Virus record (IMG/VR): IMGVR_UViG_3300045988_015843
Source of the DNA: a virus
Reading direction: 5' to 3' (one strand)
Length of the DNA: 64,000 nt
Position numbers and translations under genes: made by a program. Below the pieces are notes generated by a model. The model made no database searches, had not been told where the DNA came from, and saw only the letters and a list, made by a program, of their open reading frames with translations. Positions 24,573 to 53,130 of the stretch are shown here, in pieces. Within the stretch, counting starts at the first letter, position 1. Every line of letters begins with the position of its first letter.

Positions 24573-24588
24573 ATTGATTCTGTTTTAG

Positions 24589-24633
24589 TTGGGCGTGGGG
24601 GATCGAACCCCATACAGTCCTATTACTCGCCCA
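24589..24633 (-). ncRNA. tRNA-like minihelix (acceptor + T arm only)
   Basis: TGGGCG AGTAATAGGACTGTA TGGGG TTCGATC CCCCA CGCCCA A. Confidence 0.35.
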
Positions 24634-24861
24634 TGACACTTTGGTAGTCGAACCTGATTAGCACTTACGCTACGTGAGTGTAATCTACGATATTATAATC
24701 GCCAGTTGATGTTTAATGCGCAGTTAACGGATTTACTTCCTCATACAATCAAAACCAGTTAGGCCCATAAAATGAGTAACTATTCTCACGAACCGTTACC
24801 CTATGAGTTACGATAATAAACAATAATTAAAAAACATCAATTAAAAAACTTATGGAATTCG

Positions 24862-24922
24862 TGGACCTAGTGGGATTCGAACCCACGTCTTGTATGATTA
24901 ACTCATCCCCACACATAGTTCC
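24862..24922 (-). ncRNA. D-arm-less tRNA-like element
   Basis: GGAACTA TGTGTGGGG ATGA-GTTAA-TCAT ACAAGAC GTGGG TTCGAAT CCCAC TAGGTCC A. Acceptor pairs 6/7 and the T arm is perfect. Confidence 0.4.
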
Positions 24923-25354
24923 ATAGAGAATGGCCAAACTCCCTATGGATGCAGCACGCTACGAAATACTGCGATAGTTAGAGATTCCAAAACTGATTCA
25001 AGATTCTGTTTGGGCTAACTATATTCTTTTTGATAAAACACACTTCAAGACAGAACCTACACGCATATGTAGGGGCCTTAAAGACTTATAGTTCTTGCAT
25101 GTTCGATCATTTGATACGACAGTAGTTTATCCACCCCTGTTAGAGTGTTTTCGTCCCACATTGGCTCATGGCTCTGTGTGATAAGTCAATTCTTATGCTT
25201 TTAAAATACGTTTCTACGGCTCCAAACAATCATGATCCATCTGCGGTCATATTGAGTAATACATCGGGTTATTAGTGTTTCAAAAGCGCTCATGGCTCTT
25301 AGGCTCTTGAGTTGGACTTTGTAGTTCTATTTACAGATACTATCTGATGATAGA

Positions 25355-33064: not shown

Positions 33065-33553
33065 TTATAGAGGATTACTAAACAACCTCTAACCTGCTTC
33101 TGAATAATCGTAACCAGTTGTTGCTTTCAATGCTGCATCAGCACCTAATCCGTACAATACCTGATTTGTAAACTATTGCACAGCTGGATTACCACCAAGT
33201 ACCAACCCGGCTCCGTATATCTCAGGTAGCCATAGCGGTGCTGTAGCAGCTCCGACAGTACCCATTATAACTTTGTCAACATTCCCAGCAGTCTATTGCA
33301 TTCTACGCTGACCATATTGTCTCCAATAATCTGGTGCGGCTTTATTGATCTACCCACCTGTTTTAGGATCGTATTTAACAGTTACTTCATCTAATGGATG
33401 TTCAACGTTGTACGTATTACCAGATGCATCAGCCCACTGACCTGAATCATTCATATACGTATATGTTGGAGATCCATTGACACTGTTTAAGAAAGCTGGC
33501 AACCACTAATTACCAACCTTCATTACTTTATTTGTTTGTCTTATTTTAGGCAT
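33065..33553 (-). CDS. hypothetical Gly-rich protein (5 in-frame TAG)
   Basis: ATG 33553 to TAA 33065-33067 was checked triplet by triplet. The only in-frame stops are TAG, at 33506, 33350, 33293, 33173 and 33089. The gene is invisible in the standard-code ORF track. Confidence 0.6.
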
Positions 33554-33623
33554 AATAAAAAAGAGCCTACTTAACGTAGGCCCTGAATAAATTTGTTTAA
33601 GTATTATAGATCTAATATATTTG

Positions 33624-34310
33624 TTATGCCCTCATCTTCATGGGACTTTTTGTTATCTCCAGAGGAAGCATTTGATCTACGAAATCAATTAGATAAAGAT
33701 GTTCTTTTCCGTATATCTGATCTTTTGGAACAGTATTCATAATCTTTCTGTTGTACTTTTTAGCTTGAGACTCAAGAGATCCTTTGAAGTAATTCTTGAA
33801 AGACATTGTACCGTGTAACTCGTGGCAATTACCACTCCAAGGAGCATCCTTAGCGAATAGATAACCTCTGTTGTATAAACTATCATTGTTGTTACAAATA
33901 CCATTCGTCCATTCTTTATACGACTTTATTCCAACTCTCCATAAGTTAGGATAAAAGTCACATAGAGAACAATGACAATAATCATTTACACTCTCAGCTA
34001 TGAATCTTTTCTCAACAGCCTTTGAGCCTTTTTCAAGCCATATACGATAAATAGCGTCTGGATATAGTCTATCGAAGAAGTCACATATGCACTGTATTGA
34101 TGCGAATGTTTCATCAAACTCTGCAGCACCATGACATACTCTCCATTTATTTCCATCTCTACAAACACGTACATCAAACATACGAACTCCATGCTCATAC
34201 TGTTCAGCTATGTTCATGTTCTGAGCTTTCCATGTTCTACGCACTAAAGACTTATTGTATATACCCTTAGTAGCTTTATGGAACGTATAACTATCATGTG
34301 ATCCTATCAT
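33624..34310 (-). CDS. PI-PLC X-domain-like phosphodiesterase
   Basis: N-terminal GSHDSYT ... RMFDVRV ... CHG resembles the PI-PLC X-box catalytic signature. Confidence 0.5.
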   Translation of the reverse strand: MIGSHDSYTFHKATKGIYNKSLVRRTWKAQNMNIAEQYEHGVRMFDVRVCRDGNKWRVCHGAAEFDETFASIQCICDFFDRLYPDAIYRIWLEKGSKAVEKRFIAESVNDYCHCSLCDFYPNLWRVGIKSYKEWTNGICNNNDSLYNRGYLFAKDAPWSGNCHELHGTMSFKNYFKGSLESQAKKYNRKIMNTVPKDQIYGKEHLYLIDFVDQMLPLEITKSPMKMRA

Positions 34311-34567
34311 ACCTCAGTCGCTTTTAACAGTTCGATATATTTGTTTCGTAACTCATCATCTTTAACTGGATCTAAGATCTTATCCCAATCCAACACAGAT
34401 GGCTCATCTTTTGTTTCAGCCTCATATTTAGCAATAATAGCTTGTTTCGTATCTTCATCAAGCTTATCATTATCAGCTGATATAATTGATGCAAATGCTA
34501 TATACATAAGCTGTTTAGACAACGAAGTATTTACATCAATGTTATTTGTATGTTCTATATTATCCAT
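34307..34567 (-). CDS. small acidic hypothetical protein
   Basis: 86-aa ORF. Its ATG overlaps the TAA of the upstream read-through ORF (ATGGATAA). Confidence 0.55.
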   Translation of the reverse strand: MDNIEHTNNIDVNTSLSKQLMYIAFASIISADNDKLDEDTKQAIIAKYEAETKDEPSVLDWDKILDPVKDDELRNKYIELLKATEV

Positions 34568-35012
34568 GATTTTTATTTTTAGATTTTTTCAATGGTACAA
34601 ACGCATATTCACACGCATATGATGATATCATTTTTTTCTTTTTGTTTTTATTTTTATCTGCAGCTGGATATTTGCCAACCTCAAACAGGTTATCTGATGT
34701 ATATAACTTACCTATTGGCACTAACTCTATTGGTTTACCAGTGTACCAAACCTCGCCTGTTATATGAGCATCTGGACATTGTTTTTTCGTAGGTTTATGA
34801 ACCTTTATCTTCTAATTAACTGGCACATATACTACGTATGAATAATTAAAGCGAAGTGTGCCTTGCGCAGCCAAACATCCTATCAACGAGTCACTGAAGC
34901 ATAATCTAGGAGTTTTGTTATCTTCATGACCATTCTCGGTGAGACCATTGATAGGAATGGTTGGTGTCATCGTTATCTTATCTGCATAAAAACTATCAAT
35001 CCTGTATAACAT
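34560..35012 (-). CDS. hypothetical protein (1 in-frame TAG)
   Basis: Track ORF 34812-35012 stops at TAG 34812-34814. The same frame stays open to TAA 34560-34562 and then overlaps the next start codon in the usual way. Confidence 0.6.
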
Positions 35013-35808
35013 CGTTTAGTATATCTGATATTTGATGTGCTATTAGTTGAGCATCTGGATGAGCTCCTTTAGCTAATCTTAACTTTAACATTTTATCCCA
35101 ATCATCTATGAATCCTGTCATAACAAACTCAGTCTTAATTCCACAAGGGAGAAGATCTCTAGCTCGTTCAGCTTTCAAACCTTTAGATAACAAGGTCTTA
35201 TATACGGATTCAGATGCTGTTATATGATCTTTAAACAGCTTCTTTGTTTCAGCATCATACGTATTCCAGTCAGACGGATAGATATATTCAAGATCTCCGT
35301 TATACGTAACATACCTTGTACTTTCTTGCAGGAATGAAAATACTCTATGTCTCATGAATGATTGAGAGTTAATCCTGTTGCACGTAATCCTGAATGAATA
35401 ACGCTTTACGTGAAGCTTATGGGGCTCTGTGAGATATTTGAGATCGTAAGTCCAACCATTCTCGATAACCATTCGATAGTTTGTTGTTATGTATGCATTT
35501 CCATCAAACTCGATAACTCTAGAATACTTGTTTTGTTGATACATCTTAACCATCCCTTTGTACAACTTCTCGGTTTTAGGTATTGTCAAATAGATCGTAG
35601 CATGCTCTAATGCTGCACCATGGTTGTACGATATGAGTTTATTAGTAAATGCCTCAGCTGTTGTAGAACGCCCATTCTCATCAAAAGACATATTCTTCTC
35701 TGATTTGTACGAAGTTCTACCAGCAAGCTCAACCATTTCGAATATTCCAAGTTTGTCGTACTGCTGAGTAAGTAATTCAACATGTGGTTTAATCATCTTC
35801 ATAATCAA
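34996..35808 (-). CDS. thyX: flavin-dependent thymidylate synthase
   Basis: ThyX signature RHRVFSFLQESTRY (RHRxxSxxxxSxR) in a 270-aa ORF. Confidence 0.85.
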   Translation of the reverse strand: MIMKMIKPHVELLTQQYDKLGIFEMVELAGRTSYKSEKNMSFDENGRSTTAEAFTNKLISYNHGAALEHATIYLTIPKTEKLYKGMVKMYQQNKYSRVIEFDGNAYITTNYRMVIENGWTYDLKYLTEPHKLHVKRYSFRITCNRINSQSFMRHRVFSFLQESTRYVTYNGDLEYIYPSDWNTYDAETKKLFKDHITASESVYKTLLSKGLKAERARDLLPCGIKTEFVMTGFIDDWDKMLKLRLAKGAHPDAQLIAHQISDILNDVIQD

Positions 35809-35873
35809 CGTTGTTATATATTCTTAATAACTTCTTCTATGCTTGTATCATGCGATCAACAGATTTTACATAT

Positions 35874-36350
35874 TCAGGATCTGTTGCTGTTGATTTTAGC
35901 CTAGACGTGCGCTACATATTTTGTGCACTCTTTTGTTTCTGGTCCGTGTTCTCCTTGTGTGACATAGTGATATGATTGATTCTATTTAAACTCGTTGTAT
36001 TTTCTATATGCTTTGCTTCGTATGTATCTATCACTATCTCGATGTATGTGTTTTAACATAGACTCTCCTGTAACGCATCCTGAGACTCCTAGGTTGCAAA
36101 TATTGTCTAAAAAAGATAAAATTCCATCTTCTCCAAACTATTTTTTTAATATTCCATATGTCTCTGTTGCTTGTACAACATAAGGATTGTGTTTATCGTA
36201 CATTGGATCAACACCAGCTATATACGAAATATTCATAGGAATCTTGTGTATATAGAAATATTTGCATGTATCTGTTACAGGAACTGATTTCTACTACATA
36301 GATAAGAAATCCGCATAATACAAAATAGCACTTAATTCAAACTTATTCAT
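35874..36350 (-). CDS. hypothetical protein (5 in-frame TAG)
   Basis: ATG 36350 to TGA 35874-35876 was checked triplet by triplet. In-frame TAG occurs at 36294, 36291, 36138, 35982 and 35901, with no TAA/TGA. The N-terminus is MNKFELSAILYYADFLSM. Confidence 0.6.
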
Positions 36351-36353
36351 GTT

Positions 36354-36550
36354 ATCTAATATAATCTAATTAGTCTCATGAGTCTATGTAGGGACGTAAG
36401 AAGTAATATTATATAGTCTTACTTTCCTAAGGAGACTCATGTTATATTATATATAGTCTTACTTATTATCATGAGACTCATGTATATATTATTAGTCTTA
36501 CTATTCTACTTAGACTCATGTTATTATATTAGCTAATATAATCTAATATA
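36354..36550. repeat. Iteron-like repeats in the divergent intergenic region
   Basis: TAGTCTTACT-(8-11 nt)-(G)AGACTCATGT units start at 36414, 36454 and 36493 (spacing 40 and 39 bp), plus a related TAGTCTCATGAGTCTA at 36371. They are bracketed by direct repeats CTAATATAATCTAAT at 36356-36370 and 36533-36547. Confidence 0.65.
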
Positions 36551-36659
36551 GTTTATATATAATATAATATTCCCCCGAAGCTCTCGTGGCTGTAACGTAT
36601 TAACTAAGCGTTTTGGTTTCACAAGCTATGAAAAAATTTATAAAAAAATAAATTTTTAA

Positions 36660-36667
36660 TATTTTTG
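36660..36667 (+). promoter_or_regulatory. Possible Bacteroidota-type -7 box (TAnnTTTG)
   Basis: TATTTTTG lies 59 nt upstream of ATG 36726 in an AT-rich leader. This is a single-motif match only. Confidence 0.25.
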
Positions 36668-36725
36668 CAACCAAAATGCGCACTTCATACGTTACTGCCC
36701 CAGTAATTTAAAACAACAGATTGCT

Positions 36726-37130
36726 ATGACAAAGAAATTAGAAGTGATTGAACCGTTCTTCGGACTTGAACTTGGTGATGTTATGAATCTCTCTGATGAC
36801 GAAAAGTCTTATGTTGCAGAGTATAATTCTGCATACAAGGAGAATGACGATGATGATTCTTCTGTAAAGGCTACCTATTCGTCCAAGTGCTCTATCTCTG
36901 TCGATTATGCAAAAGAGCTTATTGACGAGGGCATGCTTAAGGAGCTCATTGATAAATCAGAGCCGTTTATAAATGTGTTTGATGAGATCGATTCATTGAT
37001 TGAGAAGTATACGTATGACCTGAACAAGGTTGATACACAGGATATGCCTGAGTGTATGAAGGTCGAACAACGTACAGTGATGCTTAATCTCATCAAAGTT
37101 CTTAACTATTTAAAGGGTCTTAAGAAGTAA
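36726..37130 (+). CDS. acidic hypothetical protein
   Basis: 134-aa ORF, first gene of the plus-strand block. TAG-free. Confidence 0.65.
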   Translation: MTKKLEVIEPFFGLELGDVMNLSDDEKSYVAEYNSAYKENDDDDSSVKATYSSKCSISVDYAKELIDEGMLKELIDKSEPFINVFDEIDSLIEKYTYDLNKVDTQDMPECMKVEQRTVMLNLIKVLNYLKGLKK

Positions 37131-37546
37131 TGCAAGAGAAGATTAATCAGAAACCTTTAGCTGAGGATGTAAGTAATAAGATCAAATATGAGTTCTTTGA
37201 CAGCTTTTTAGTAAAGCCGCTTACACCAGTAAAGGTCAAGAAGGAATTCAGTACACCGATTGCGACAGATAAGCCTAAGGCTGATAAGAACGGAATCGAG
37301 GCAACTGATTATGATAAAGTAAAGAAAGAAGTTAAAGAGGTTGATTCAGACTATTTAACAGGTATTGTACTTAAGGTTCCATACAGATATACTAAATGGA
37401 TGGGTAATGAGAAGAGTTATGATCTTCCTCCGATACATGTTGGAGATACGATTTTCTATAAAGCCAGACACTTTGAGTACTTCGATCTTGTTAAAGACTC
37501 TCATCTAGTACGACAATTTGACATTATCGGAAAGGTCCATGATTGA
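37130..37546 (+). CDS. hypothetical protein
   Basis: 138-aa ORF. Its start overlaps the previous stop (TAATG). Confidence 0.65.
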   Translation: MQEKINQKPLAEDVSNKIKYEFFDSFLVKPLTPVKVKKEFSTPIATDKPKADKNGIEATDYDKVKKEVKEVDSDYLTGIVLKVPYRYTKWMGNEKSYDLPPIHVGDTIFYKARHFEYFDLVKDSHLVRQFDIIGKVHD

Positions 37547-37748
37547 TGTTAATAGTTTGAGCAATCAAATATCTAAAGAACTCAATATTGATAAAAACAT
37601 TGTCAATGATGTTATACACCAGGTATTTGATTGTACAGCAACGATTATGAAAGACCCGAATGATCAAAGAGATATATTGTTTGCTAAGTTATTTAAATTT
37701 AAATTAAAACCAAGATTTAAACATGAAAACGATTGCAGCGACGTATAA
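37539..37748 (+). CDS. HU/IHF-like DNA-binding protein (short)
   Basis: MIDVNSLSNQISKELNIDKNIVNDVIHQVFDCTATIMK...LFKFKLKPR follows the HU/IHF helix-helix-beta-arm pattern. Confidence 0.4.
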   Translation: MIDVNSLSNQISKELNIDKNIVNDVIHQVFDCTATIMKDPNDQRDILFAKLFKFKLKPRFKHENDCSDV

Positions 37749-38052
37749 TTCAGATGTACTTATTGTCGATACAGAAACCGCTAATATCGAACCGCTTGAT
37801 GTACAAAGGAATGCGTGCAACAGAGTATACATGGCTCCTGAAGATATGCATTTCAAGTTCATAGATCGCGACAGGAGTGTTGAAGAGTTCGATGTTAAAG
37901 CTGGCGATATTATACTTGCGTTTTGGGATACAGATTTTCCGCACAAGTATATAAAGATAACATCTGACGAGTGGAAAGAAAACCTCGATAACTATAATAA
38001 ACGAATGAAAGAACTTAAAACAATTAACGATGAAGTCAATGAAGCCTGTTAA
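37723..38052 (+). CDS. hypothetical protein
   Basis: 109-aa ORF. Confidence 0.55.
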   Translation: MKTIAATYNSDVLIVDTETANIEPLDVQRNACNRVYMAPEDMHFKFIDRDRSVEEFDVKAGDIILAFWDTDFPHKYIKITSDEWKENLDNYNKRMKELKTINDEVNEAC

Positions 38053-38392
38053 GAAATATGTGATCGTAGATCTTACAAACGTTGAGAGCCCCAGTGATGT
38101 ATATGCAGCTTTTGTAGAGGCTAAGTGTGGTGTAGAGCCTATCACTAAAGAGGAGATGTTCAACTACGCTATGCACGTCACAGAGCTGATGAATTCAAAC
38201 ATCGTCAAGTCATGCGCTTATCTAGTAGATTATATTGATGCACTGATTGATACAATTGAGAGTGTTTATGATAATGATGATTCTGATGACGCTGAGAATG
38301 CCGTAAAGAAGCGAGAGGGTGAGGAGAATGAGGTTGAGAAGAAGCCTAATATCTTCAAGCGTTTCTGGAACTGGATTACACGTAAGAAATAA
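38030..38392 (+). CDS. hypothetical protein (acidic C-terminus)
   Basis: 120-aa ORF. Confidence 0.55.
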   Translation: MKSMKPVKKYVIVDLTNVESPSDVYAAFVEAKCGVEPITKEEMFNYAMHVTELMNSNIVKSCAYLVDYIDALIDTIESVYDNDDSDDAENAVKKREGEENEVEKKPNIFKRFWNWITRKK

Positions 38393-38439
38393 ATAGTTGG
38401 TTACTAAAAACTATCTGCAGTGACACACAACACTGCAAT

Positions 38440-38530
38440 GCGGGAGTAGCTTATGAGGTAGAGCAGTGTGAAGTCTGGAATAATATCAGATGAGATCCTC
38501 ATGGAAGCAGGTTCGAGTCCTGCCCCTGCG
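38440..38530 (+). ncRNA. Aberrant ~91-nt tRNA-like RNA
   Basis: GCGGGAG TA GCTTATGAGGTAGAGC (canonical 5' acceptor and D arm) ... CAGG TTCGAGT CCTG CCCCTGC G. Acceptor pairs 6/7. The 43-nt middle has no canonical anticodon arm. ATGAGG (38453-38458) can pair with CCTCAT (38497-38502). It is preceded by a 7-bp hairpin at 38417-38438. Confidence 0.4.
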
Positions 38531-38544
38531 CAAAAAACTACAAT

Positions 38545-38763
38545 ATGCGGCTAAAAGAATCTAATAGACCAAAACATTTGTTGTACGCTATTCCTGCAGC
38601 ATTTGTTGGTACGATATTATTCAGTACAGGTCTAGCGTTTGGAATGGAGTTTAAAGACAAACAATGGGGAGGTAAGTTCGATTGGCTTGATATAGCTGCT
38701 ACAGAAATAGGTGGTTTAATCGGACAAGCACTTCAAATAGGAGTGATTTCATTATTTGTTTAA
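38545..38763 (+). CDS. small membrane protein
   Basis: 72-aa ORF with two hydrophobic helices, followed by the hairpin AACCTC-CTTAAGAAA-GAGGTT. Confidence 0.55.
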   Translation: MRLKESNRPKHLLYAIPAAFVGTILFSTGLAFGMEFKDKQWGGKFDWLDIAATEIGGLIGQALQIGVISLFV

Positions 38764-38830
38764 TTAATTAACCTCCTTAAGAAAGAGGTTAACACTGCCC
38801 TATGGTGTAGCGATTAGCACAAGAGGCTCT

Positions 38831-39809
38831 TTTATCCAATGAATAATTGAATATATGGAAAATAAAATATATAAGCTCTCAGACGAACAGTTTGTTGAGC
38901 TGCTCAAGAATAGTTCGACTATATCTGAAGTGTTATTTAAATTAGGTTATAGTGTAAAGGGTAATTCTTGGGGGTTTGCTAAAGTTAAACAAAGAATGTC
39001 TGATTTAAATTTAGACGGAAGTATATTTAAAGGTAAATCTCCAATTACGAAATATGGTACTTTACACAAAGTAAATGCTTCAGATATATTAAAACCTAAT
39101 TGTAAACATGCTCGTTCTGTTTTAAGACGATATGTCATAAAAAATAATCTAATCCCATATCGATGTGCGATTTGCGGATGTGTTGAATGGCAAGGTCGTA
39201 CATTAAGCTTAGAGCTTGATCATATAAACGGAATCAACAACGATAATCGTATAGAAAATCTACGATTTCTATGTCCGAATTGTCATAGTCAGACAACTAC
39301 TTATGGTAGTAGAAATCAACAAAGAAATGATTCTGAATATGAAATTACAGACGATCTTAGAAATTTAGTTGAAGCTGAGTATCAAAAACGTCGTAATATA
39401 AAACAAGTTTCTTCAGCACTTGGTGTTCGTAGACATGTTGTAAACAGGATTGTTAGCGAAAGCGGTTTGAAAAAATCTAATCAAAAATATGTGATTCGAT
39501 ACGATGAGAACTGGAACGAAATTGCACGATATGGTTCTTTGATAGAGACTGCAAAGCAACTTATTCTCAACAACGAAGTTAAAACAAAACGAATTAAAAC
39601 ATGTACTCGTACGATCATGTACAATAAGGATAATTTTTGGTTGAACAGTCATTGGAAAATATTGGATGGTAGCGGGATAATAAATAATCCGCTATTAGAA
39701 TCTTCTCTAATTGACTCGGAAGACAATGTTGACGAGGCGCAAGCGAAAGCAGCGTGACAGACTGAACGAGAAGACTGGTCTTAGGACTGGATGCAACAGT
39801 CGATTTATG
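38831..39809 (+). mobile_element. Group I-like intron carrying an HNH homing endonuclease
   Basis: 979 nt inserted in the anticodon loop. P7-like pairing: C39758-G39802, bulged A39759, G39760-C39801, A-T, C-G, T-A. GNRA hairpins GCGCAAGC and GCGAAAGC lie at 39737-39750. The terminal nucleotide is G. P1/IGS was not identified by eye. Confidence 0.6.
38855..39757 (+). CDS. HNH homing endonuclease (intron-encoded)
   Basis: LELDHINGINNDNRIENLRFLCPNCHS is an HNH motif with a CxxC pair (CAICGC ... CPNCH). TAG-free, TGA stop. Confidence 0.85.
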   Translation: MENKIYKLSDEQFVELLKNSSTISEVLFKLGYSVKGNSWGFAKVKQRMSDLNLDGSIFKGKSPITKYGTLHKVNASDILKPNCKHARSVLRRYVIKNNLIPYRCAICGCVEWQGRTLSLELDHINGINNDNRIENLRFLCPNCHSQTTTYGSRNQQRNDSEYEITDDLRNLVEAEYQKRRNIKQVSSALGVRRHVVNRIVSESGLKKSNQKYVIRYDENWNEIARYGSLIETAKQLILNNEVKTKRIKTCTRTIMYNKDNFWLNSHWKILDGSGIINNPLLESSLIDSEDNVDEAQAKAA

Positions 39810-39861
39810 AACCCTCCTGGTCCGGGTTTGACTCCTGGTAGGGCTACTAAAATATAATAAG

Positions 39862-40425
39862 ATGGAAATTAAATTCAAGAAACTTTCTCATAAGGCTGTA
39901 ATGCCTTCAAAAGCACATAAGACAGATGCTGGTTTTGATCTAACTACTACGGGTATAACGACAGAGTTGAATGAGTGTGGTCAGTTGGTGATCGTATATC
40001 ATACAGATCTTGCATTAGAGATTCCTGAAGGATACTTTGCTCTGGTGATGCCAAGATCATCTATTGCAAAGAAGTCATTACGTCTTACGAATAGTTGTGG
40101 TGTGATCGATTCAGGCTATCGTGGTGAAATACTTGGTAAATTTATCGCAACTACAGATGTTGTTCCTGCCGTATACAAGGTTGATGATAAATTTGCTCAG
40201 CTGGTGATCTTGCCTGTTCCTGATGTAGAGTTTGTTGAGTCTGATAATTTTTCAGAATCTGATCGAGCTGATGGTGGTTACGGATCTTCTGATAAGGCAC
40301 AGACTGCTGTAGACTCTGATACTAATACATCTGGCAACGACGAAAATATTTCAGTGCGAAGTGCACGACCGACAGATTGGCAGTCTGCAGTAACTGAGGA
40401 CAATCAGTGCGAGTCTGCAGCATAA
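39862..40425 (+). CDS. dut: dUTP diphosphatase with C-terminal extension
   Basis: KTDAGFDL, PRSS, VIDSGYRGEI and the DRADGGYGSS motif are typical of trimeric dUTPases. Confidence 0.85.
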   Translation: MEIKFKKLSHKAVMPSKAHKTDAGFDLTTTGITTELNECGQLVIVYHTDLALEIPEGYFALVMPRSSIAKKSLRLTNSCGVIDSGYRGEILGKFIATTDVVPAVYKVDDKFAQLVILPVPDVEFVESDNFSESDRADGGYGSSDKAQTAVDSDTNTSGNDENISVRSARPTDWQSAVTEDNQCESAA

Positions 40426-40453
40426 TAACACATGACAACCATCAAGGTTGTTT

Positions 40454-40528
40454 GGAAGTTTAGCTCAGTTGGTTTAGAGCGTCTGCCTTACAAGCAGAAG
40501 GTCGATGGTTCGAATCCACCAACTTCCA
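40454..40528 (+). tRNA. tRNA-Val anticodon TAC
   Basis: GGAAGTT TAGCTCAGTTGGTTTAGAGC G TCTGC CTTACAA GCAGA AGGTC GATGG TTCGAAT CCACC AACTTCC A. Confidence 0.85.
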
Positions 40529-40612
40529 CCTTCATTTTTTTCATACTGACTTTTTGAATTTGCGTTACTCCAACTTCGGTTGGAGTAATTGCGTATATAC
40601 GTATATATAAAT

Positions 40613-41104
40613 ATGATTTATTCAAAGCTTAGACGTACAAATATACAGAATGCGGCAGGTACTCCTGTCACACCTCGTATTTTACATATGCAAGAGCCTG
40701 ATAAATTGAAAATCGTGGATAGCTCTCAGTTTCAATTCGGAGATGTTCTCGATGCAAAATCTACAATGGAACTTATCGGAAAGGGCGGTGGTTCTGGTGT
40801 AGATATGAAAATGCTCTAGGCATATGTGAACAAAATGACGATTGAGTATGATCCAGCAACTAAATCTGTAAAACTAATCTCTCCAGATGGGATTGTTATT
40901 GGATCTGCTGATATGTCATCTATTGCAACAGAGGGTGGTGTTGCAATTGAATCTGGTTCTTACGATAAGGGTAGTGATAAACAGAACGTGCTGCGTCTGA
41001 AAATGACTGACGGATCTTCTAAGGAGATCTTGATGAACGATGTTATGGACTCTAATGACGATTATTCTATCGACACAAAAGACATCGCATCAATCTTAAA
41101 TTAA
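40613..41104 (+). CDS. hypothetical virion protein (1 in-frame TAG); first TAG-containing plus-strand gene
   Basis: Track ORFs 40589-40819 and 40826-41104 share a frame and are joined by TAG 40817-40819. Start taken at ATG 40613. Confidence 0.6.
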
Positions 41105-41185
41105 TCACTTAAATTTTTAAATTATGGAAGAGATTAACAAAATTTATACGAGTGACACGGCTAATAGCTTTAGCAATGGTGCTTG

Positions 41186-41869
41186 ATGGGCGCAATGCTT
41201 GGTAATAATGACCGCAACGATGCCTTGACAGCTATGTTAGCTAATGGTGGTAATCAGCAGATGTGGAATAACCCGTTTGCATATCTGATATGGTTGATAT
41301 TTACCGGTCAGTTCGGTGGCTTCGGCAATAACGCAAATAATTGCATTGGTGATCAAATCCAGAATTTACAAAATCAGATTCAAGACAACCATAATAGTGA
41401 TCTCACTATGCAGGCTGTCAATGGTAACACTGGTGCTATTGCACAACTATCTCAGACATTGAATGTCGGATTCGATCAGGTACAGTCAGCTGTTAACCAG
41501 ATGACTACGATGATGTAGGGTGGTATGAACAATATTAATACATCCATTTTATCTCAGGGTTACCAGAATCAACTGAACAATTGTCAACAGACAAATACTA
41601 TTCTGATGCAGAGTCAGGCGCTTCAGAATGCTGTTCAGAACGGTTTCGCACAGGTAGGTTTCCAGGCTGAGCGAAACGCATGTGATGCTAAGGAAACAAG
41701 TACACAGAATACACAGAAGATCATTGATACCCTGACTAATCATTGGAATCTGGAACAGCAGACTACGATTCAGCAACTACGCGATGAGATTGGTAGATTA
41801 AATCAAACCAATGCTCTAATCTCAGTTCTTAAACCGAGCTCTGCTGTCACAACAACTACAACAGTTTAA
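41186..41869 (+). CDS. Gln/Asn-rich hypothetical protein (1 in-frame TAG)
   Basis: 41183-41518 and 41525-41869 are in the same frame, joined by TAG 41516-41518. Confidence 0.6.
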
Positions 41870-41880
41870 TAAAATAATAA

Positions 41881-43191
41881 ATGCAATATTTAGATCTATT
41901 AGGCCTTCAGCAACTTTGGACGTCTGCTAAGGCCAAGTTTGCTACAAAAGGTACTCTTGCAAATAGTGGTATTACAGACGGTTACTCAAGCATTGAGACC
42001 GGTACTGTTGTCCCTATTAGGAATCTTGATAATGGTATTCTCGCAGATATTATCACTGGAAGTGATAATCATAAACTTAAGACTCAGTATGTCACAGTTG
42101 ACGCCACTGGTGGTCTTGCTACAACGAACTATGTTGACACCAAGGTTGGTGCTGTAAAGGTTCCCGCTTATACGCTCACCAAGTCTACATCTACTGATTA
42201 TGCTGCCGTATATCACCTCCAGAAGGATGGTGCTAATGTTGGTGAAGCCATCAACATTCCGAAGGATATGGTTGTTGAGTCAGGTAAGGTTGTTTGGGGT
42301 TCTTATGTTGATGGTGTGTTCACTCCCGCAACGGATAAGAAGAATGCTACTCCGTATGTTGAGTTGACTCTGGCTAACAGTACAGCTAACAAGATTTATA
42401 TCGCTGTTGCTGATCTTGTCAATGAGCATAAGGCTGGTACTGGTATTAGTATTACGAATAACACTGATGGTACTCGTACGATTGAACTTGGAGCTGATGT
42501 TAATGCAAAGATCAACTAGAGTGTGATTGAATTCAGCGTACCTAAAGAGGGCAATAAATTGCTATGCCATAAAAACAACAACGACTCAGTGGCGATATTG
42601 GCGGGTGATGGAACAAATGTTATTATAGGTGAAAATTCGGATGGAATAGCTGAGCTCACTATTAATGCGAATATTCTAAATGATGTCAATGCCGCAAAGT
42701 CTCAGTCAAGCACTAACAAGACCAATCTTGACGCACTAACTAAGCGTGTTGATGGTATTGTTGCAACGGGTGGTGAGGCCAACCAGGATGCTTATTCTAA
42801 CATTAAGGTTGGTTCTACTACGCTTGCTGCTACAAGCAAGACTGATACTGTATAGTTTGCTGGTGCTGGTCTGATTTCTGTAACTGGTTCTACTGCAGAC
42901 AAGAAGGTTACGATCGGCCACTCTAATCCGACTGGTGCCGCTGTTAAGGCAGCTGGTTTCTATAAGTTTGCTACGGATGCTGCTGGTCACGCTACTGGTT
43001 TGACTGCTGTTGCTGCTAGCGATATTACGGCACTCATCGGTGCTCATGGCCTTACGCTGAGCAAGACGAATGCTGCGAACGATACTGCTGCTATCACGAT
43101 TGGTAGCACTTCTTACACGGTTGGTCCGATTCCTCTTGGTGATGAGACTAATCCTGCTAAGGACACTGTTCGTTATATTCTGAATCATTAA
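41881..43191 (+). CDS. tail fiber protein (2 in-frame TAG)
   Basis: 41881-42519, 42523-42855 and 43000-43191 form one frame through TAG 42517 and TAG 42853. The N-terminal MQYLDLLGLQQLW...KFATKG motif is shared with 44200-45753. Confidence 0.65.
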
Positions 43192-47527: not shown

Positions 47528-49594
47528 ATGATTGATTTTAATAAGAAAATAGTTAACTCAGATAAGTTTAGACAAGCTGCTTTATTCTTCGAAAAGAACG
47601 GATGTTATACGTTTGCTCCAGAAGGTACGACAGACTACTTCAATTATTGGAAACAAGAACAACAAAGATGTTTAAATGGATACACAGCTCCTGATGGAGA
47701 TTAGATAACTGGGTATCATTACTTTTATCTCAACTATAGTCCTATTATGAAGCTTGTTGAAACAGAATACACAGATCGTAATGGAACTAAGAGAACTAGA
47801 CGAGAGCGTTTGTTTAGATTTCCTGATTTTTGGGATTACGATTGGTTCTATTATAATGCTATAGAACAGGCTGAAGATGAAGGTAAACATATGGTTGTAC
47901 TTAAAGCTCGTGCTCGTGGATACTCATTCAAAGGTGCGTCTATGTTATGTAGAAACTATTTTCTTATTCCAAAATCAAAGAATTTTGCTGTTGCATCGGA
48001 ACAAAAGTTTCTAACAGGTGATGGTTTGTTAACAAAAGCTTGGCAAATCATGGACTTCTTAGATAAGCACTCTGGATGGGCTAAACGAAGATTGAGAGCA
48101 ACTTCTTTAGAACGTACATCTGGATTTAAGGTTAAAGATGAGATAACAGGTAAAGAGGTTGAAGATGGTTATCTATCTAGCGTAACAGGTATAACACTTA
48201 AGAATGATCCAGAACGTATTCGTGGTACTCGTGGTAGATTGTTCTTATGGGAGGAGTCTGGTAAATTTCCAGACATTAAACAAGCTTGGCAAATAGCAAG
48301 ACCTTCTGTAGAAACAGATGACGGTGTTGCGTTCGGATTGATGATTGCATTTGGTACTGGCGGATCTGAGGGTGCAAACTTTGAAGGTTTGTCAGATATG
48401 TTTTATCATCCAGAAGGCTTTAATTGTTTAGACTTCGATAATATTTGGGATGAGGGTATGGCTGATAAGAAGTGTGGATTCTTTGTTCCAGCATGGTCTA
48501 ATCTGCAATCAGATGAACATCCTGAATGTATGGATTCTGATGGTAATACGAATAGATCTGCATCTGTATAGGTAATATTAGAACAAAGAAGAATCGTAAG
48601 AGATAGTCAGCCTGATGAAACTGTAACAGATAGATATATTGCAGAGCACCCCAACACACCTTAGGAAGCAATTCTTGAGGTTGGTAAAAACATATTTCCA
48701 AAAAAGCAATTACAAATGCAGCTTAACAAACTAAGGACGAACACGAAATTAGCTAATATGAAACATGTTGTTGACTTGGTTTGGGAAGGGGATGGTACTG
48801 TAAAAGCCATTGAAAAGAAGGGTGGTGATATAACACACTACCCACTAAAGAAAGGAGAGTAGCCAACAGGATCTGTTGTTATATACGAATATCCTGTTAA
48901 AGATCCTCCTTACGGATTATACATAGCTGGTCAGGACCCTTATGATCAAGATGGTTCTCTTACAAATTCATTAGGATCTACGTTTATATATAAACGATTC
49001 TAGCCAGGAGAAGCTTGGTCAGATGTGATAGTTGCTGAATATAGTGGAAGACCTGATACAGCTGAAGAATATTATGAGAATGTTCGTAAGCTATTGACTA
49101 TGTATAATGCGAAATTATTGTTCGAGAATGAACGTAAAGGTATATACCCGTACTTTACAAATAAGCATTGTGATTATATGCTAGCAGACCAACCAGATAA
49201 GGTTATAAGTGAAATATTCAAAGACTCTAAAGTACAACGTAAGAAAGGTTGTCATATGACAAAACAAATTAGATCATATGCAGAGGGTCTTATAAAAGAA
49301 TGGTTACTTGAAGAATATGAACCGGGTCATCCAAATCTCGAACGTATATATAGTGAGCCATTGATAGAAGAGTTGTTGTTAGATGATGGTGTACGAAATG
49401 TAGACCGTGTAATAGCTCTATGTATGGTCATGCTATATAGAGAAGAATTATATCAAGTAAAGATTGCAGCAGCAAAAGAGTAGAATAAACAAATAGATTT
49501 CTTTGAAACGCCATTGTTTAGTAACCAATGGTTTGACGAAGATAGTTCGTACGATAATTAGTACGACAATAACATTCCGACATTTACGTTTTAA
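47528..49594 (+). CDS. terL: terminase large subunit (7 in-frame TAG)
   Basis: ATG 47528. Track pieces 47747-48571 and 49025-49483 are in the same frame. TAG occurs at 47700, 48569, 48662, 48860, 49001, 49481 and 49559. ATPase-like VLKARARGYSFKG and LFLWEESGKF. Directly precedes the portal. Confidence 0.8.
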
Positions 49595-49596
49595 CA

Positions 49597-52500
49597 ATGA
49601 TAAGAGTAGAAGATAATTTATATAATGCGAACTTTCCGCAACAGAAACTACCTCTAAAGAAAAAAGATGAGTAGTGGTAGCATGACTGCGTGAATTACAT
49701 TATCGGAGAAGGTAATGTTGTATCTGGCGGAATGTAGAAGACTCGGTTTAGCGAACTTCAAACATATTACGATCTATATAATAGTATCTTTGATGAAAAG
49801 GACTTTAAACGTATAACCAACCCGTTTAAAGTATCAGACGGATTTCCTGCTACACCACAAGACTTCAACATAATTAGGCCTAAGGTAGACCTCCTTATAG
49901 GTGAAGAGACAAAGAGGCCGTTTAATTTCAGAGTTGTACGTACATCACAGGAGGCAACATCTGACTTAATGGATTAGGAGAAAGAAATGCTAATCCAATA
50001 TATGATGAGTGCTATTATGGGCAGAATGAGTCCTGAAGAGCAACAATAGTTCCAACAACAACTTTAGAGTGGTGAGATAATGCCGCCTGAAGAGATTGGA
50101 AAGTATATGCGTAGGGATTACAAAGATGTTATAGAAAACACAGCCTATCATTCTCTGATGTATATACGCGAGAAGTGTGGTATAGATAACGAGTTTATCA
50201 AAGGTTGGAAAGACGGTTTGATAGCGGGACAAGAGGTATACTATGTTGGTGTACAAAATGGAGATCCTTACATGGAACGTGTGAATCCTGTATATTTTTC
50301 ATTCGATCAGTCACCAGACCTTGAGTTTATAGAAGATGCGTCATGGTGTTGTAGAAAAATGAGACTCCCTGTAGCTGAAGTATACGACAGATATCATGAT
50401 AAGTTGTCTGAGAAAGATTTAGACAAATTAAACGAGATGTTAACAGGTCGTCCATCAAATGATCTTGGAGAAAAAGACCCTGTTGATAATTTCAATCATA
50501 TACAAATGCATATATACGATAATCCTGTTTTTGATCAGAAGACAAGACATAACATTAATGTATGGCATTGTTGTTGGAAATCGTTTAAGAAGATTAAGTA
50601 TGTTACGTTTCAAGATGAAAACGGAGATGCTTAGATTGAAATCGTAGACGAATTCTATAAACCTGTTGGAACAGAGATAGGTATTGATGAGGATTGGATT
50701 GTTGAAGTATGGGAAGGATATAGAGCCGGATCAGATTTGTATTTTGGTATACAACCGGTTGCTTATCAACATATAAGCATTGATCAACCAGATAGTCAGA
50801 AGTTACCTTATTGTGGTGCTATATATAGTAACACTAACAGTAAGCCAAGATCCCTTGTAAGCATCCTCAAGCCTTTGCAGTATATGTACATTGTATTGTG
50901 GTATAGACTTGAATTAGCAATAGCTAGGGATAAAGGTAAGGTTATCAATATGGATATTACGTAGATACCTAAATCTATGAATATTACACCAGATCGATGG
51001 ATGCATTATTTATCAAGCGTTGGTGTAAACTTCATAAATCCTTATGAGTGCTTTGATCCAGATACAGAGGTGTTGATGTACGACAGATCTGTTCGTAAGA
51101 TTAAAGATATTCATATTGGTGATAAGGTACTTGGTCCAGATGGAACTCCACGTACTGTATTGGATGAGTGTGAGGGTATCGACAAGATGTATAGAATACA
51201 CAGTGGCACAGGATGTGATGATTAGATTGTAAACAGTAGACATAAAATTTATTATACTGAATATAATCACTTTAAAAAAACATACACTGACAAGTTGGCA
51301 ACTCCATTGGAGTTGATGAAAGAGGATCTACATAAGTCGTATATAAAACAAAATCGATATTTGAAACGAGTACATCCTACTGACAATAATGTTTCTTCAA
51401 ATTTACTATTAGATCCGTATTATCTTGGATTATGGTTGGGCGATGGTTTTACAAACAGTCCTGCAATAATAAACGAAGATATAGAGGTGATTAAGTGGTT
51501 GTCAGAATATGCCGAGTCTAATGGTATGACAACAACAATCCTTTCTGATAAAAACGTTCCTGTTATATATCTTAAAAATAAGGTGTATAATCATAAGAAC
51601 CCAATAAAAGACACACTTCAATATTATGGAATCTTAAATCAAAAAGATATCCCAGATGATTACCTACATGGTAGTGTTGAAGATAAACTACAGTTAATGG
51701 CAGGTCTTATTGATACTGATGGGCATTTTTCAAAGCGTGATCGCATTTATACATTTAGCCAATGTGAATCTAGAAAACATATTGTAGACAAACTTGCTTT
51801 TATAGCAAGATCTTTAGGATTTAAATGTAGTCTACACATGTACAAAACCGCTGGTACAAAACACATATGTGGTAATAAGAGCACATGTCAAAATACATAC
51901 ACGTTACGAATAATTGATGGATTGTACGATATTCCATGTAAAATTGCTCGTAAGAAACATCATTGGGTTCAAAAGCGTACAAAACGAAGTTTGACAAATT
52001 TCAAGGTTTCGTACAGCCATATTGGAAAATACAAAGGTATCACTACAGATGGAGATCACTTCTTTGTGTTAAAAGACTTTACAGTAGTACATAACTGTCA
52101 ATGGGGTATTCCTGGCAGAGAGGGTGGTAAACCAGCTACGTTTAATCAAATAACATCACTTGATCTTACGATGAGTAATGTTATTGCGGAGTATATTCAA
52201 CTCATGGATAAGATTGAACAATTAGCTGGAACAATCACTGGTATCACAGAGCAACGTCAAGGAGCTATTAGCACATCAGAACTTGTTGGAAACGTAGAAC
52301 GATCTGTATTACAATCATCTCATATCACAGAACCCTTGTTCTGGGTACACAACCAATGTAAGAAGCACGTGTTAACAATGCTTCTTAATACAGCAAAAGG
52401 TGTCTGGGAAGAGTCTGGTAAGAAAAAGCTTCAATACGTATTTGATAATGGAGAAAGAGCATTCTTAGCAATAACAAAACAATTCTATTATGAAGATATG

Positions 52501-53130
52501 GATGTATTCGTTAGTGACACATCTAAGGATGCTGAGAACATAGCAAAACTTCAACAGCTTATTCAACCTGCAATGCAAAATGGAGCAAGCTTGTTAGAAG
52601 CAGCAGAGGTTCTTACGAATGATAACTTTAACATTATCAAACAGAAGCTTAAAGATATGCAAGATCGTCAAGATCAACTTTAGCAGCAGCAACAAGAGGC
52701 TCAGCAGCAACAAGCAATGCAACTTCAGCAGATGCAGAATGAGGCTAAAGAGCAAGAACTCATGCTTAAGGAAGCTGAAATGGATCTTCAGAGGTATAAG
52801 ATTGATGCTGATAATCAAACCAAGATTGCTGTGGCTGAAATTAGCACATATAGAGGTACTGAGGATAAGGATATCAATATGAATGGTATTCCAGATCCGA
52901 TGGAGATAGCTAAGGATGCTACACAGCAACGTAAGATAGATTCAGAAGCATATACTAAGCGTTATGAAGCTCGTCAGAAAAAGGAGATTGAAGATAAGAA
53001 GATCAGTCTTGCTAAAGAACAGATGAAACATGAAAGTGAACTTTAGAAGTAGAAAGACGACGCTGCTATGTAGAGAGAAGAGCTTAAGGCTAAGACCGCA
53101 TTGAAAAACAAAGTAGCTGGTGAACGATGA
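49597..53130 (+). CDS. portal protein interrupted by an intein (13 in-frame TAG)
   Basis: A single frame runs from ATG 49597 to TGA 53128-53130, linking track ORFs 50080, 50737, 50977, 51295 and 52717. About 828 codons remain without the intein. Position is immediately after TerL. Confidence 0.75.
51049..52095 (+). mobile_element. Intein with LAGLIDADG homing endonuclease (349 codons, 1 in-frame TAG)
   Basis: Begins NPYE|CFDPDTEVLM and ends FTVVHN|CQWG. Block B-like VNSRHKI. LAGLIDADG motifs YYLGLWLGDGF and LMAGLIDTDGHF. Confidence 0.85.

Follow-up and report, generated by a model that had tools for sequence, protein, structure and literature searches.

The split suppressor gene and its phage

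The DNA analysed here is a 64,000-nt phage stretch, IMG/VR record IMGVR_UViG_3300045988_015843 (hereafter, the window; positions are window coordinates unless another sequence is named), in which a tRNA gene lies in two halves on the plus strand. The 5′ exon of this gene, tRNA-Sup(CUA), spans 38796–38830, corresponds to tRNA positions 1–35 and ends in C34 U35, with U38830 as the U(-1) of the predicted 5′ splice site; the 3′ exon spans 39810–39846, corresponds to positions 36–73, starts with A36 A37 C38 and does not encode CCA. Between them, at 38831–39809 on the same strand, lies a group I intron of 979 nt that holds an HNH endonuclease open reading frame (ORF) in its P1 loop. The exon assignments come from ARAGORN run on the in silico spliced sequence and from comparison with an allele in IMG/VR contig IMGVR_UViG_3300029717_000007 (L001), backed by enumeration of junctions for the 5′ half and by covariation between the halves for the 3′ half; the intron was delimited by its presence or absence relative to L001, by covariation in its core and by a family covariance model.

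Joining 38796–38830 to 39810–39846 yields a 72-nt tRNA with the anticodon CTA that is accepted by ARAGORN, the ligated junction reading GAGGCUCU/AACCCUCC (a slash marks the junction throughout) and the spliced anticodon loop CUCUAAC. A first-pass annotation, made from the sequence alone, had proposed such a cloverleaf upon removal of 38831–39809, with the insert in the anticodon loop, and both points hold. Indeed, L001 contains the uninterrupted gene, which reads ...AGAGGCTCTAACCCTCC..., and aligns with 33378–38830 at 93.4% and with 39810–42484 at 94.2%, the alignment breaking exactly at T38830/A39810, so that the boundaries of the intron are fixed and no shifted placement is possible. When all 8 junctions in the 7-nt loop were enumerated, a single one, CTCT/AAC, combined T as the last exon base with G as the last intron base, in agreement with the unique U(-1)/omega-G junction of the first-pass annotation. 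The stem pairings listed there do form the cloverleaf, with two corrections: U1·U72 in the acceptor stem and A27·C43 in the anticodon stem are mismatches.

Because it is split by 979 bp, the gene escapes tRNA finders. A standard ARAGORN run on the native window reports no tRNA at the site, the intron mode of the same program finds nothing in the native region, and the 7 ordinary tRNAs recovered by ARAGORN and Rfam all lie elsewhere in the window. Brute-force application of ARAGORN to all junction combinations proved too permissive, and explicit stem and loop rules were used instead. In the lineage that comprises the window, L001 and L003, the D loop of the suppressor tRNA (AGCGATTA) is missing its customary GG and the T loop reads TTTGACT rather than TTCGAAT, whereas the suppressor tRNAs of relatives have both the D-loop GG and TTCGAAT; the two deviations may compensate for each other in the tertiary contact between D loop and T loop.

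Judged by its sequence, the window comes from a crAss-like gut phage; its TerL gene (ORF 47528–49594, plus strand) has its best matches, ~69% identical, in phages of the Suoliviridae (Oafivirinae). A minus-strand block at 4.3–37 kb is almost free of TAG, and a plus-strand late-gene block (40589–63772) contains in-frame TAG codons, 7 of them in TerL and 13 in the portal gene (49573–53130). The split tRNA is encoded between them, on the late-gene strand, and is followed by a dUTPase gene, tRNA-Val and TAG-containing genes. Its placement at the entry to the TAG-recoded late genes, noted in the first-pass annotation, is thus confirmed by the many in-frame TAGs of the plus-strand ORFs from 40589 onward, and its designation as an amber suppressor by the CUA of the spliced cloverleaf together with the in-frame TAGs of TerL and portal. 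No other CUA tRNA was found by ARAGORN in the 64-kb window, and a promoter and terminator scan around the split gene returned promoters no better than shuffled sequence.

The suppressor is likely charged with glutamine, because three conserved columns (KFRQAAL, LADQPDK and NKQ) in the TerL genes of related phages show TAG in one opposite Q in another and because proteomics supports TAG=Q in such phages (bioRxiv 10.1101/2022.01.06.475225), for which a TAG-to-Gln code has been published (PMC7886860; 10.1101/2022.01.06.475225). The reason originally given for this identity, similarity to the phage tRNA-Gln(UUG), is weak: the two tRNAs are identical at 39 of 72 positions, no more than the 39 to 46 at which the suppressor matches the other tRNAs of the window.

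The ribozyme core, its proposed guide sequence and the endonuclease

The group I nature of the insert is borne out by covariation and by the hallmarks of P7, not by Rfam. Alignment A1 holds 36 distinct intron cores, in which helices P2, P3, P4, P6, P7 and P8 and, in a subset, P9 were tested, with P7 treated as a pseudoknot across P3. In these homologues, 98.8% of the pair cells are paired, against 32–50% after the partners are slid by 1–3 columns, and both sides change at 23 of the 41 pairs, compared with 3–10 after sliding. The covariation score of 0.356 falls to 0.079 or less once the partners have been slid, and the observed values were reached in 0 of 500 shuffles. RNAalifold, given none of the proposed structure, recovers P2, P3, P4, a short P5, P6 and P8. 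The helices follow the order P3-P4-P5-P6-P7-P3′-P8-P7′ with a P3/P7 pseudoknot, which is the arrangement of a group I core.

In the window, where all elements are on the plus strand, P2 is a hairpin of 39669–39678 with 39687–39695 and a bulged G39676 (7 of 9 pairs change on both sides, 98.8% of cells paired, in agreement with RNAalifold). P3 pairs UCUUCUC (39701–39707) with GAGAAGA (39768–39774), 6 of its 7 pairs changing on both sides, and P4 pairs CUCG (39715–39718) with CGAG (39733–39736), all cells being paired and 2 of 4 pairs changing on both sides. The very short P5 within P4 (39722–39724 with 39728–39730) is drawn by RNAalifold as 39722/39730 and 39723/39729 (columns 69/90 and 70/89), one of which changes on both sides in 11 sequences; its third pair, C39724–G39728, was read by eye, and the flanking junctions J4/5 GAA and J5/4 GA are invariant. 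P6 consists of 39738–39740 with 39752–39754 and 39743–39744 with 39749–39750, closed by a GAAA loop (39745–39748), with 100% of cells paired and a loop-closing pair that changes on both sides in 8 sequences. This is the one GNRA hairpin that fits the supported structure; the others implied by the first-pass annotation do not. P8 is a hairpin of CUGGUC (39775–39780) and GACUGG (39785–39790) around the loop UUAG, again in agreement with RNAalifold, and 3 of its 6 pairs change on both sides.

P7 (39758–39764 with 39797–39802), which forms the pseudoknot with P3, comprises C39758–G39802, the bulged A39759 and the strand GACUG, paired from G39760–C39801 through G39764–C39797 with the 3′ strand CAGUCG. 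The P7-like helix with a bulged A next to a G-C pair, recognised at the outset, indeed co-varies across the 36 homologues: every position is paired in 36 of 36, the first pair changing from C-G to A-U in 10 sequences and the last from A-U to G-C in 12. The pair G39760–C39801, the predicted guanosine-binding site, never varies among the 36 sequences; the bulged base beside it, at 39759, can be A, C or U. On the 3′ side, covariation supports J8/7 (AUGCAA) followed directly by the P7 strand CAGUCG (39791–39802 together), a string that resembles the Rfam consensus UgAAGAUAUAGUCu, and the intron finishes with a 7-nt tail (39803–39809) ending in omega-G, G39809. The P9 hairpin is absent from the window lineage, unlike in distant homologues, where it co-varies. 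Junctions J3/4 (UAA), J4/5 (GAA), J6/7 (UGA) and J8/7 are conserved, and by eye the junction motifs match the Rfam group I consensus strings AAauCuGuCgAAUUGCGGgAAA, UUCAaAGACUAAAcGgCaGac and UgAAGAUAUAGUCu, with the same P3/J3-4/P4, P7/P3′ and J8-7/P7′ motifs.

A P1 extension between 38835–38842 (UCCAAUGA) and 39649–39656 (UCAUUGGA), identified with RNAduplex on all homologues, closes the giant loop that holds the ORF. In a swap test, strands of the same intron paired with a mean of -11.5 kcal/mol, compared with -7.7 for strands of different introns. Just downstream, UUGGA (39662–39666) is the proposed internal guide sequence; among 36 sequences GGAUG is invariant and the two preceding U's nearly so. 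This pentanucleotide is complementary, with one wobble, to nucleotides 33–37 of the ligated tRNA (UCU/AA). P1 would accordingly pair the exon UCU (38828–38830) with GGA (39664–39666) through the wobble G39664·U38830, and P10 would pair UU (39662–39663) with A39810 and A39811 of the 3′ exon. The UCU/GGA pairing is the one chosen by RNAduplex in most homologues, U(-1) is present in every resolved copy, and the guide sequence appears to read the anticodon itself.

RNAalifold, which cannot draw the P7 pseudoknot, instead joins 39660–39667 to 39791–39798 (A1 columns 7–14/164–171), so that the region of the guide sequence faces J8/7 and the first part of the 3′ strand of P7; one of these pairs shows some co-variation. 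This pairing could be an alternative, inactive conformer or merely a phylogenetic correlation.

The ORF in the P1 loop (38855–39757, plus strand) encodes a 300-aa HNH homing endonuclease. Its residues 104–147 match Pfam HNH PF01844 at 21.9 bits (cutoff 21.4), the protein matches PHROG 10822 ‘HNH endonuclease’ with an E value of 2.6e-44, and the reading frame has no TAG, all as expected from the first-pass annotation; no maturase-like domain was detected with Pfam or PHROG. The ORF terminates at the UGA of J6/7; over its final ~110 nt the coding sequence also supplies the P1-extension 3′ strand, the guide sequence and P2–P6. Because of this overlap, translation of the ORF and folding of the ribozyme should compete with, or exclude, each other. 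In several homologues the start codon of the ORF also lies inside the P1 extension helix. An ORF of 270–324 codons without stops of any kind is present in 69 of 95 stretches with an intron core, all copy types and duplicates included.

Distribution, exon co-evolution and optional presence

Relatives of the HNH protein (54–98% identity) occur in 23 crAss-like contigs of IMG/VR, in every case within a tRNA anticodon loop. A search with the core pattern identified 70 stretches in IMG/VR, at least 120 in metagenomes and 5 in 185,579 species genomes, all 5 being contigs of metagenome-assembled genomes. Altogether, there are more than 90 distinct copies in gut crAss-like phages, all in CUA tRNAs. 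Wherever both exons of a copy with the HNH ORF could be resolved, the junction is CUA (~40 distinct IMG/VR loci and 53 distinct metagenome exon pairs), and the loop is CUCU/AA(C/A) in every resolved copy, despite widely differing tRNA bodies, with acceptor stems that include TGCCCTA, TCCCCTA, TCTCCTA, TGGGGTA, TGGTCCA and others. The restriction to CUA is consistent with recognition of the anticodon loop itself by the guide sequence and, probably, by the endonuclease.

The exon halves evolve as one molecule. Across 34 distinct tRNAs spliced in silico, all from intron-bearing loci, 96.8% of the cloverleaf is paired, compared with ~47% when the pairing partners are slid, and double-sided changes are found at all 7 pairs of the acceptor stem and all 5 of the anticodon stem, whose strands are ~1 kb apart in the DNA. 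U1 and a weak 1–72 pair are conserved among the spliced suppressors. Halves this far apart would hardly co-vary as a single cloverleaf if selection did not act on the joined tRNA. The same observation argues strongly against the idea, almost certainly wrong in our judgement, that insertion of an endonuclease gene destroyed the suppressor and left the decoding of TAG to a different tRNA or factor. In favour of that idea, standard tools report nothing at the site and ~33 kb of the genome lie outside the window; against it, the exon halves are intact and co-vary across 34 distinct genes that bear the intron, structural selection on the ribozyme core is strong, and no alternative CUA tRNA is found in PV686213, a complete genome with a split suppressor.

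The intron is an optional mobile element, not a required regulator. Presence and absence at one exact site among close relatives, a signature of homing, is seen between the window and L001, which is 93–94% identical and lacks the intron. Moreover, uninterrupted homologous Sup-CTA genes number at least 110 in IMG/VR (ARAGORN recognised 110 intact tRNA(CUA) among the 120 pattern matches listed), alongside ~50 interrupted genes.

Split suppressors of one lineage (L005, L006, L008–L012, L203, L218 and many metagenome loci) have the T loop GGCAGCA instead of TTCGAAT and are missed by ARAGORN even when spliced; suppressors of this type probably escape detection even without an intron.

Other features of the window deserve mention. 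A 93-nt ‘tRNA-???’ with a 4-letter anticodon, called by ARAGORN at 38439–38531 (plus strand), precedes the split suppressor by 265 nt. In this odd tRNA-like gene the T arm is normal, the variable hairpin is long, the D arm is followed by 8 extra nt, and an anticodon-like arm TCTGG-AATAATA-TCAGA has A rather than U at position 33; the gene is kept in L001 with compensatory changes in two stems. A permuted tmRNA called by ARAGORN at 24574–24951 (minus strand) has no Rfam tmRNA match at the gathering threshold and is therefore probably a false positive. Finally, the plus-strand portal gene contains an intein at ~aa 481–830 (Pfam Hom_end_hint, E 5e-17; LAGLIDADG-type Hom_end, E 1e-7) with boundaries of the C...HN/C type, so that recoding and an intein meet in one gene.

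Proposed splicing, competing explanations and the place of the intron

We consider it highly probable that the insert is a mobile, HNH-bearing group I intron, inserted between nucleotides 35 and 36 of the amber-suppressor tRNA(CUA) of the phage, most likely a glutamine acceptor, and that it is spliced out to give a working tRNA. Under this model, a precursor of ~1.05 kb would be transcribed, and the last ~160 nt of the intron would fold into a compact core, P2–P8 with the P3/P7 pseudoknot. The 5′-terminal ~12 nt or more would pair with a stretch just before the guide, looping out the ORF and bringing the 5′ splice site to the core, where UUGGA would pair with UCU/AA of the anticodon loop, forming first P1, with its U·G wobble, and then P10. 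An external guanosine would attack after U38830, G39809 would take the same site, and the exons would be ligated to the 72-nt tRNA with the loop CUCUAAC, which would then read UAG codons that lie in frame in the late genes. By cutting uninterrupted suppressor genes of co-infecting relatives, the HNH enzyme would spread the intron, a selfish element, through homing.

Several observations weigh against this interpretation. Splicing has been deduced from DNA sequence rather than RNA; the Rfam group I model is silent on the window; the exon-guide pairing amounts to only 3 bp plus 2 bp; ~10–25% of the distinct copies end in A, which classical group I chemistry does not predict; the core of the window copy is minimal, with a P5 of 2–3 bp and no P9, and may self-splice poorly without protein; and the window covers 64 kb of a ~97-kb genome, so that a second suppressor could reside elsewhere. 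Both sides of the guide pairing are invariant and so offer no covariation in its favour.

Rfam RF00028 (Intron_gpI) has no match in the window at the gathering threshold and none at E<=10 to 38700–39950 or to the 191-nt 3′ part alone, and it likewise finds nothing at 9 homologous loci. Among 17 related loci scanned, a single weak match was obtained (L029:2748–2958, 26.9 bits, E 0.0045). Conversely, R1, a covariance model built from alignment A1, has one match only in the window (39654–39812, 191.5 bits), none in the intronless L001, and matches at 37–85 bits to compact introns in environmental phage contigs, including L029:2755–2952 at 54 bits (E 6e-10), the same stretch that is recognised by Rfam. 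R1 thus ties the intron of the window to environmental-phage introns with long P9/P9.1 tails. The Rfam group I model is insensitive to the whole subclass and misses compact, complete relatives as well; the absence of a hit is, therefore, not a valid refutation. The first-pass annotation had named the lack of a group I covariance-model hit as grounds for abandoning its proposal, and such a lack was indeed found with RF00028, but the covariation and the bridge provided by R1 overturn it. A BLAST search of the intron core against GenBank phages matched only two records, both unannotated.

Some environmental contigs (L029 1934–3358, L046 2394–3425, L067 9058–9894 and L061 155–1566) carry two or three compact, ORF-less introns of this core family within ~1.5 kb, presumably in a single gene, and Rfam detects only one of these clustered introns, weakly.

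The terminal base of the intron is G in the window, in 46 of the 53 distinct exon pairs from metagenomes and in most of the ~40 distinct IMG/VR loci. Copies ending in A, with an unchanged G-binding pair, occur in Bohxovirus-like L002 (PV686213, record positions 65190–66250), L026, L045, L051, L052, L055, L056, L077 and L087, independently in L068, and in the metagenome loci L233 and L245, in the contexts ...ACA/AAC, ...AUA/AAC and ...CUA/AAC. The TerL genes of these phages have 13–15 TAG codons, and the complete genome PV686213 contains no other CUA tRNA, no UUA tRNA and no second copy of the intron; either omega-A is tolerated or these phages have another decoding route. A tblastn comparison of in-frame stops in the late genes of the omega-A loci aligned only the dUTPase, and a scan of PV686213 with TGA as the sole stop was too noisy in this AT-rich DNA. 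Recoding of TAA in PV686213 was considered as well, given 6 in-frame TAA beside 7 TAG in its TerL, and was rejected: IMG/VR relatives that are 96–97% identical have 13–15 TAG and no TAA, and the TAAs in the record are probably G-to-A sequence errors. In this record, assigned to Bohxovirus sp. ‘endotrachealis’, TerL (positions 47870–50324, our L096) is annotated as six ‘hypothetical protein’ fragments.

The likeliest competitor, itself unlikely, holds that the core is too reduced to self-splice and requires a protein cofactor, for example the HNH protein in a maturase role or an RNA chaperone of the host or phage. The 2–3-bp P5 and the missing P9 of the window lineage point in this direction, as does the persistence of the omega-A subgroup in phages that depend on TAG decoding, which suggests help beyond a canonical ribozyme. 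However, P3–P8, J4/5, J6/7, J8/7 and the G-binding pair are all conserved, the ORF has no detectable maturase-like domain, and small bacterial tRNA introns of ~200 nt, such as the Azoarcus intron (see PMC13168695), do self-splice.

More speculatively, the intron could be more than a passenger. In this unlikely scenario, translation of the ORF and production of the suppressor would be mutually exclusive, setting the timing or dose of the code switch, and the endonuclease would act as a phage-phage weapon, destroying the uninterrupted suppressors of co-infecting relatives and blocking translation of their late genes; separately, the omega-A copies would be natural group I introns that ligate exons without a terminal G. 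A modulatory role of the intron through the overlap of ORF and ribozyme is possible.

A regulatory gate, in which splicing has been co-opted to time the supply of mature suppressor and hence the translation of TAG-containing late genes, seems to us improbable, although it can coexist with the model of a spliced mobile intron. Such a gate might operate through ribosomes that, while translating the HNH ORF, run through P2–P6 and block folding of the ribozyme, and several features are compatible with it: the position of the split gene between the TAG-free and TAG-containing blocks, the sharing of sequence between the ORF, up to its stop in J6/7, and the P1-extension 3′ strand, guide and P2–P6, the start codons within the P1 extension of several homologues, and the possible RNAalifold pairing that would sequester the guide region. 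By contrast, the 93–94% identical phage with the gene but without the intron, and the at least 110 uninterrupted homologous suppressors, imply that the phage can complete its life cycle without the intron and leave unsupported the proposal, made in the first-pass annotation, of splicing as an additional layer in the early/late code switch. The presence/absence pattern combined with an HNH gene is the standard signature of a selfish homing element, and ORFs overlap ribozyme cores in other mobile introns that have no gating role.

The element belongs to a known kind, that of mobile group I introns sited in the anticodon loops of tRNAs; what is new, and consequential, is its host gene, a tRNA that implements a viral code change. 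It shares with the classical bacterial tRNA introns an anticodon-loop ribozyme intron with U(-1) and omega-G and, as predicted here, a very short guide pairing on loop nucleotides and a normal tRNA as product, but differs in that the host gene is a phage-encoded stop-codon suppressor and in that the core groups with introns of environmental phages, is invisible to RF00028, lacks P9 in the window copy and holds a 0.9-kb ORF in the P1 loop. The tRNA-fMet intron of Synechocystis PCC 6803 encodes the homing endonuclease I-Ssp6803I. It is likewise an anticodon-loop group I intron with its own homing enzyme, which targets the anticodon region of the intronless gene; however, that enzyme is of the PD-(D/E)XK type and the intron resides in an initiator tRNA of a bacterial chromosome, whereas here an HNH enzyme, a phage and a suppressor are involved. 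The Synechocystis intron is cited in PMC3943268 and PMC1995217. The four classical anticodon-loop cases all belong to subgroup IC3, and 21 tRNA/site classes are listed in Williams 2020 (bioRxiv 10.1101/2020.01.27.920355); in the naming used there, the present insertion, which unlike the classical ones follows loop nucleotide 4 (35/36), would be ‘Sup.4Ug’.

Group I introns with HNH enzymes are known from protein-coding genes of phages, with I-HmuI (SPO1 DNA polymerase) and I-PfoP3I (cyanophage Pf-WMP3) as examples (PMC3428280). These too are phage-borne and show presence/absence polymorphism among relatives, but they interrupt mRNAs and belong to subgroup IA2 with P7.1/P7.2, whereas here the host is a tRNA and P3′ runs directly into P8, P7.1/P7.2 being absent. 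The uninterrupted Sup-CTA tRNAs of TAG-recoded crAss-like phages (PMC7886860; 10.1101/2021.08.26.457843) are of the same tRNA family, play the same part in the genome and likewise lie near late genes; they differ from the window copy in not being split. Suppressor tRNAs, as well as dense introns in protein-coding genes, are familiar in crAss-like phages; an intron inside a suppressor tRNA was not found described in the searchable literature, although a Sup class may be present in the bacterial-genome table of Williams 2020.

The split gene bears on a known gap in the biology of recoded phages. A Sup-CTA tRNA is detectable in 375 of 715 phages predicted to use code 15 (PMC11210395), and TAG-recoded crAss-like or Suoliviridae genomes without a suppressor have been reported, for which suppressors of the host or suppressors unrecognised by software were tentatively suggested (PMC7886860; PMC12386605; 10.64898/2026.08.21.746148). 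In Supplementary Data 1 of Yutin 2021 (PMC7886860), the cMAGs OJAR01000005 and OBCI01000009 are listed as ‘TAG/q’ (given there with a vertical bar) without Sup, their tRNAs being fMet/Lys/Ile2/Ile and Lys/Ile/fMet, respectively. Both genomes contain the split tRNA(CUA), with omega-G introns of 985 and 986 nt. Part of the missing-suppressor gap is, therefore, explained by a gene that is present and hidden by a ~1-kb intron that tRNA finders and Rfam miss. With at least 120 stretches, the family is common in gut metagenomes, and annotation pipelines could adopt the covariance model and the search pattern, with immediate value for recoded phages. The omega-A copies pose a puzzle for group I chemistry. 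In phages whose suppressor is split, a ribozyme would be an obligatory step in a viral genetic-code switch, one that is open to experiment.

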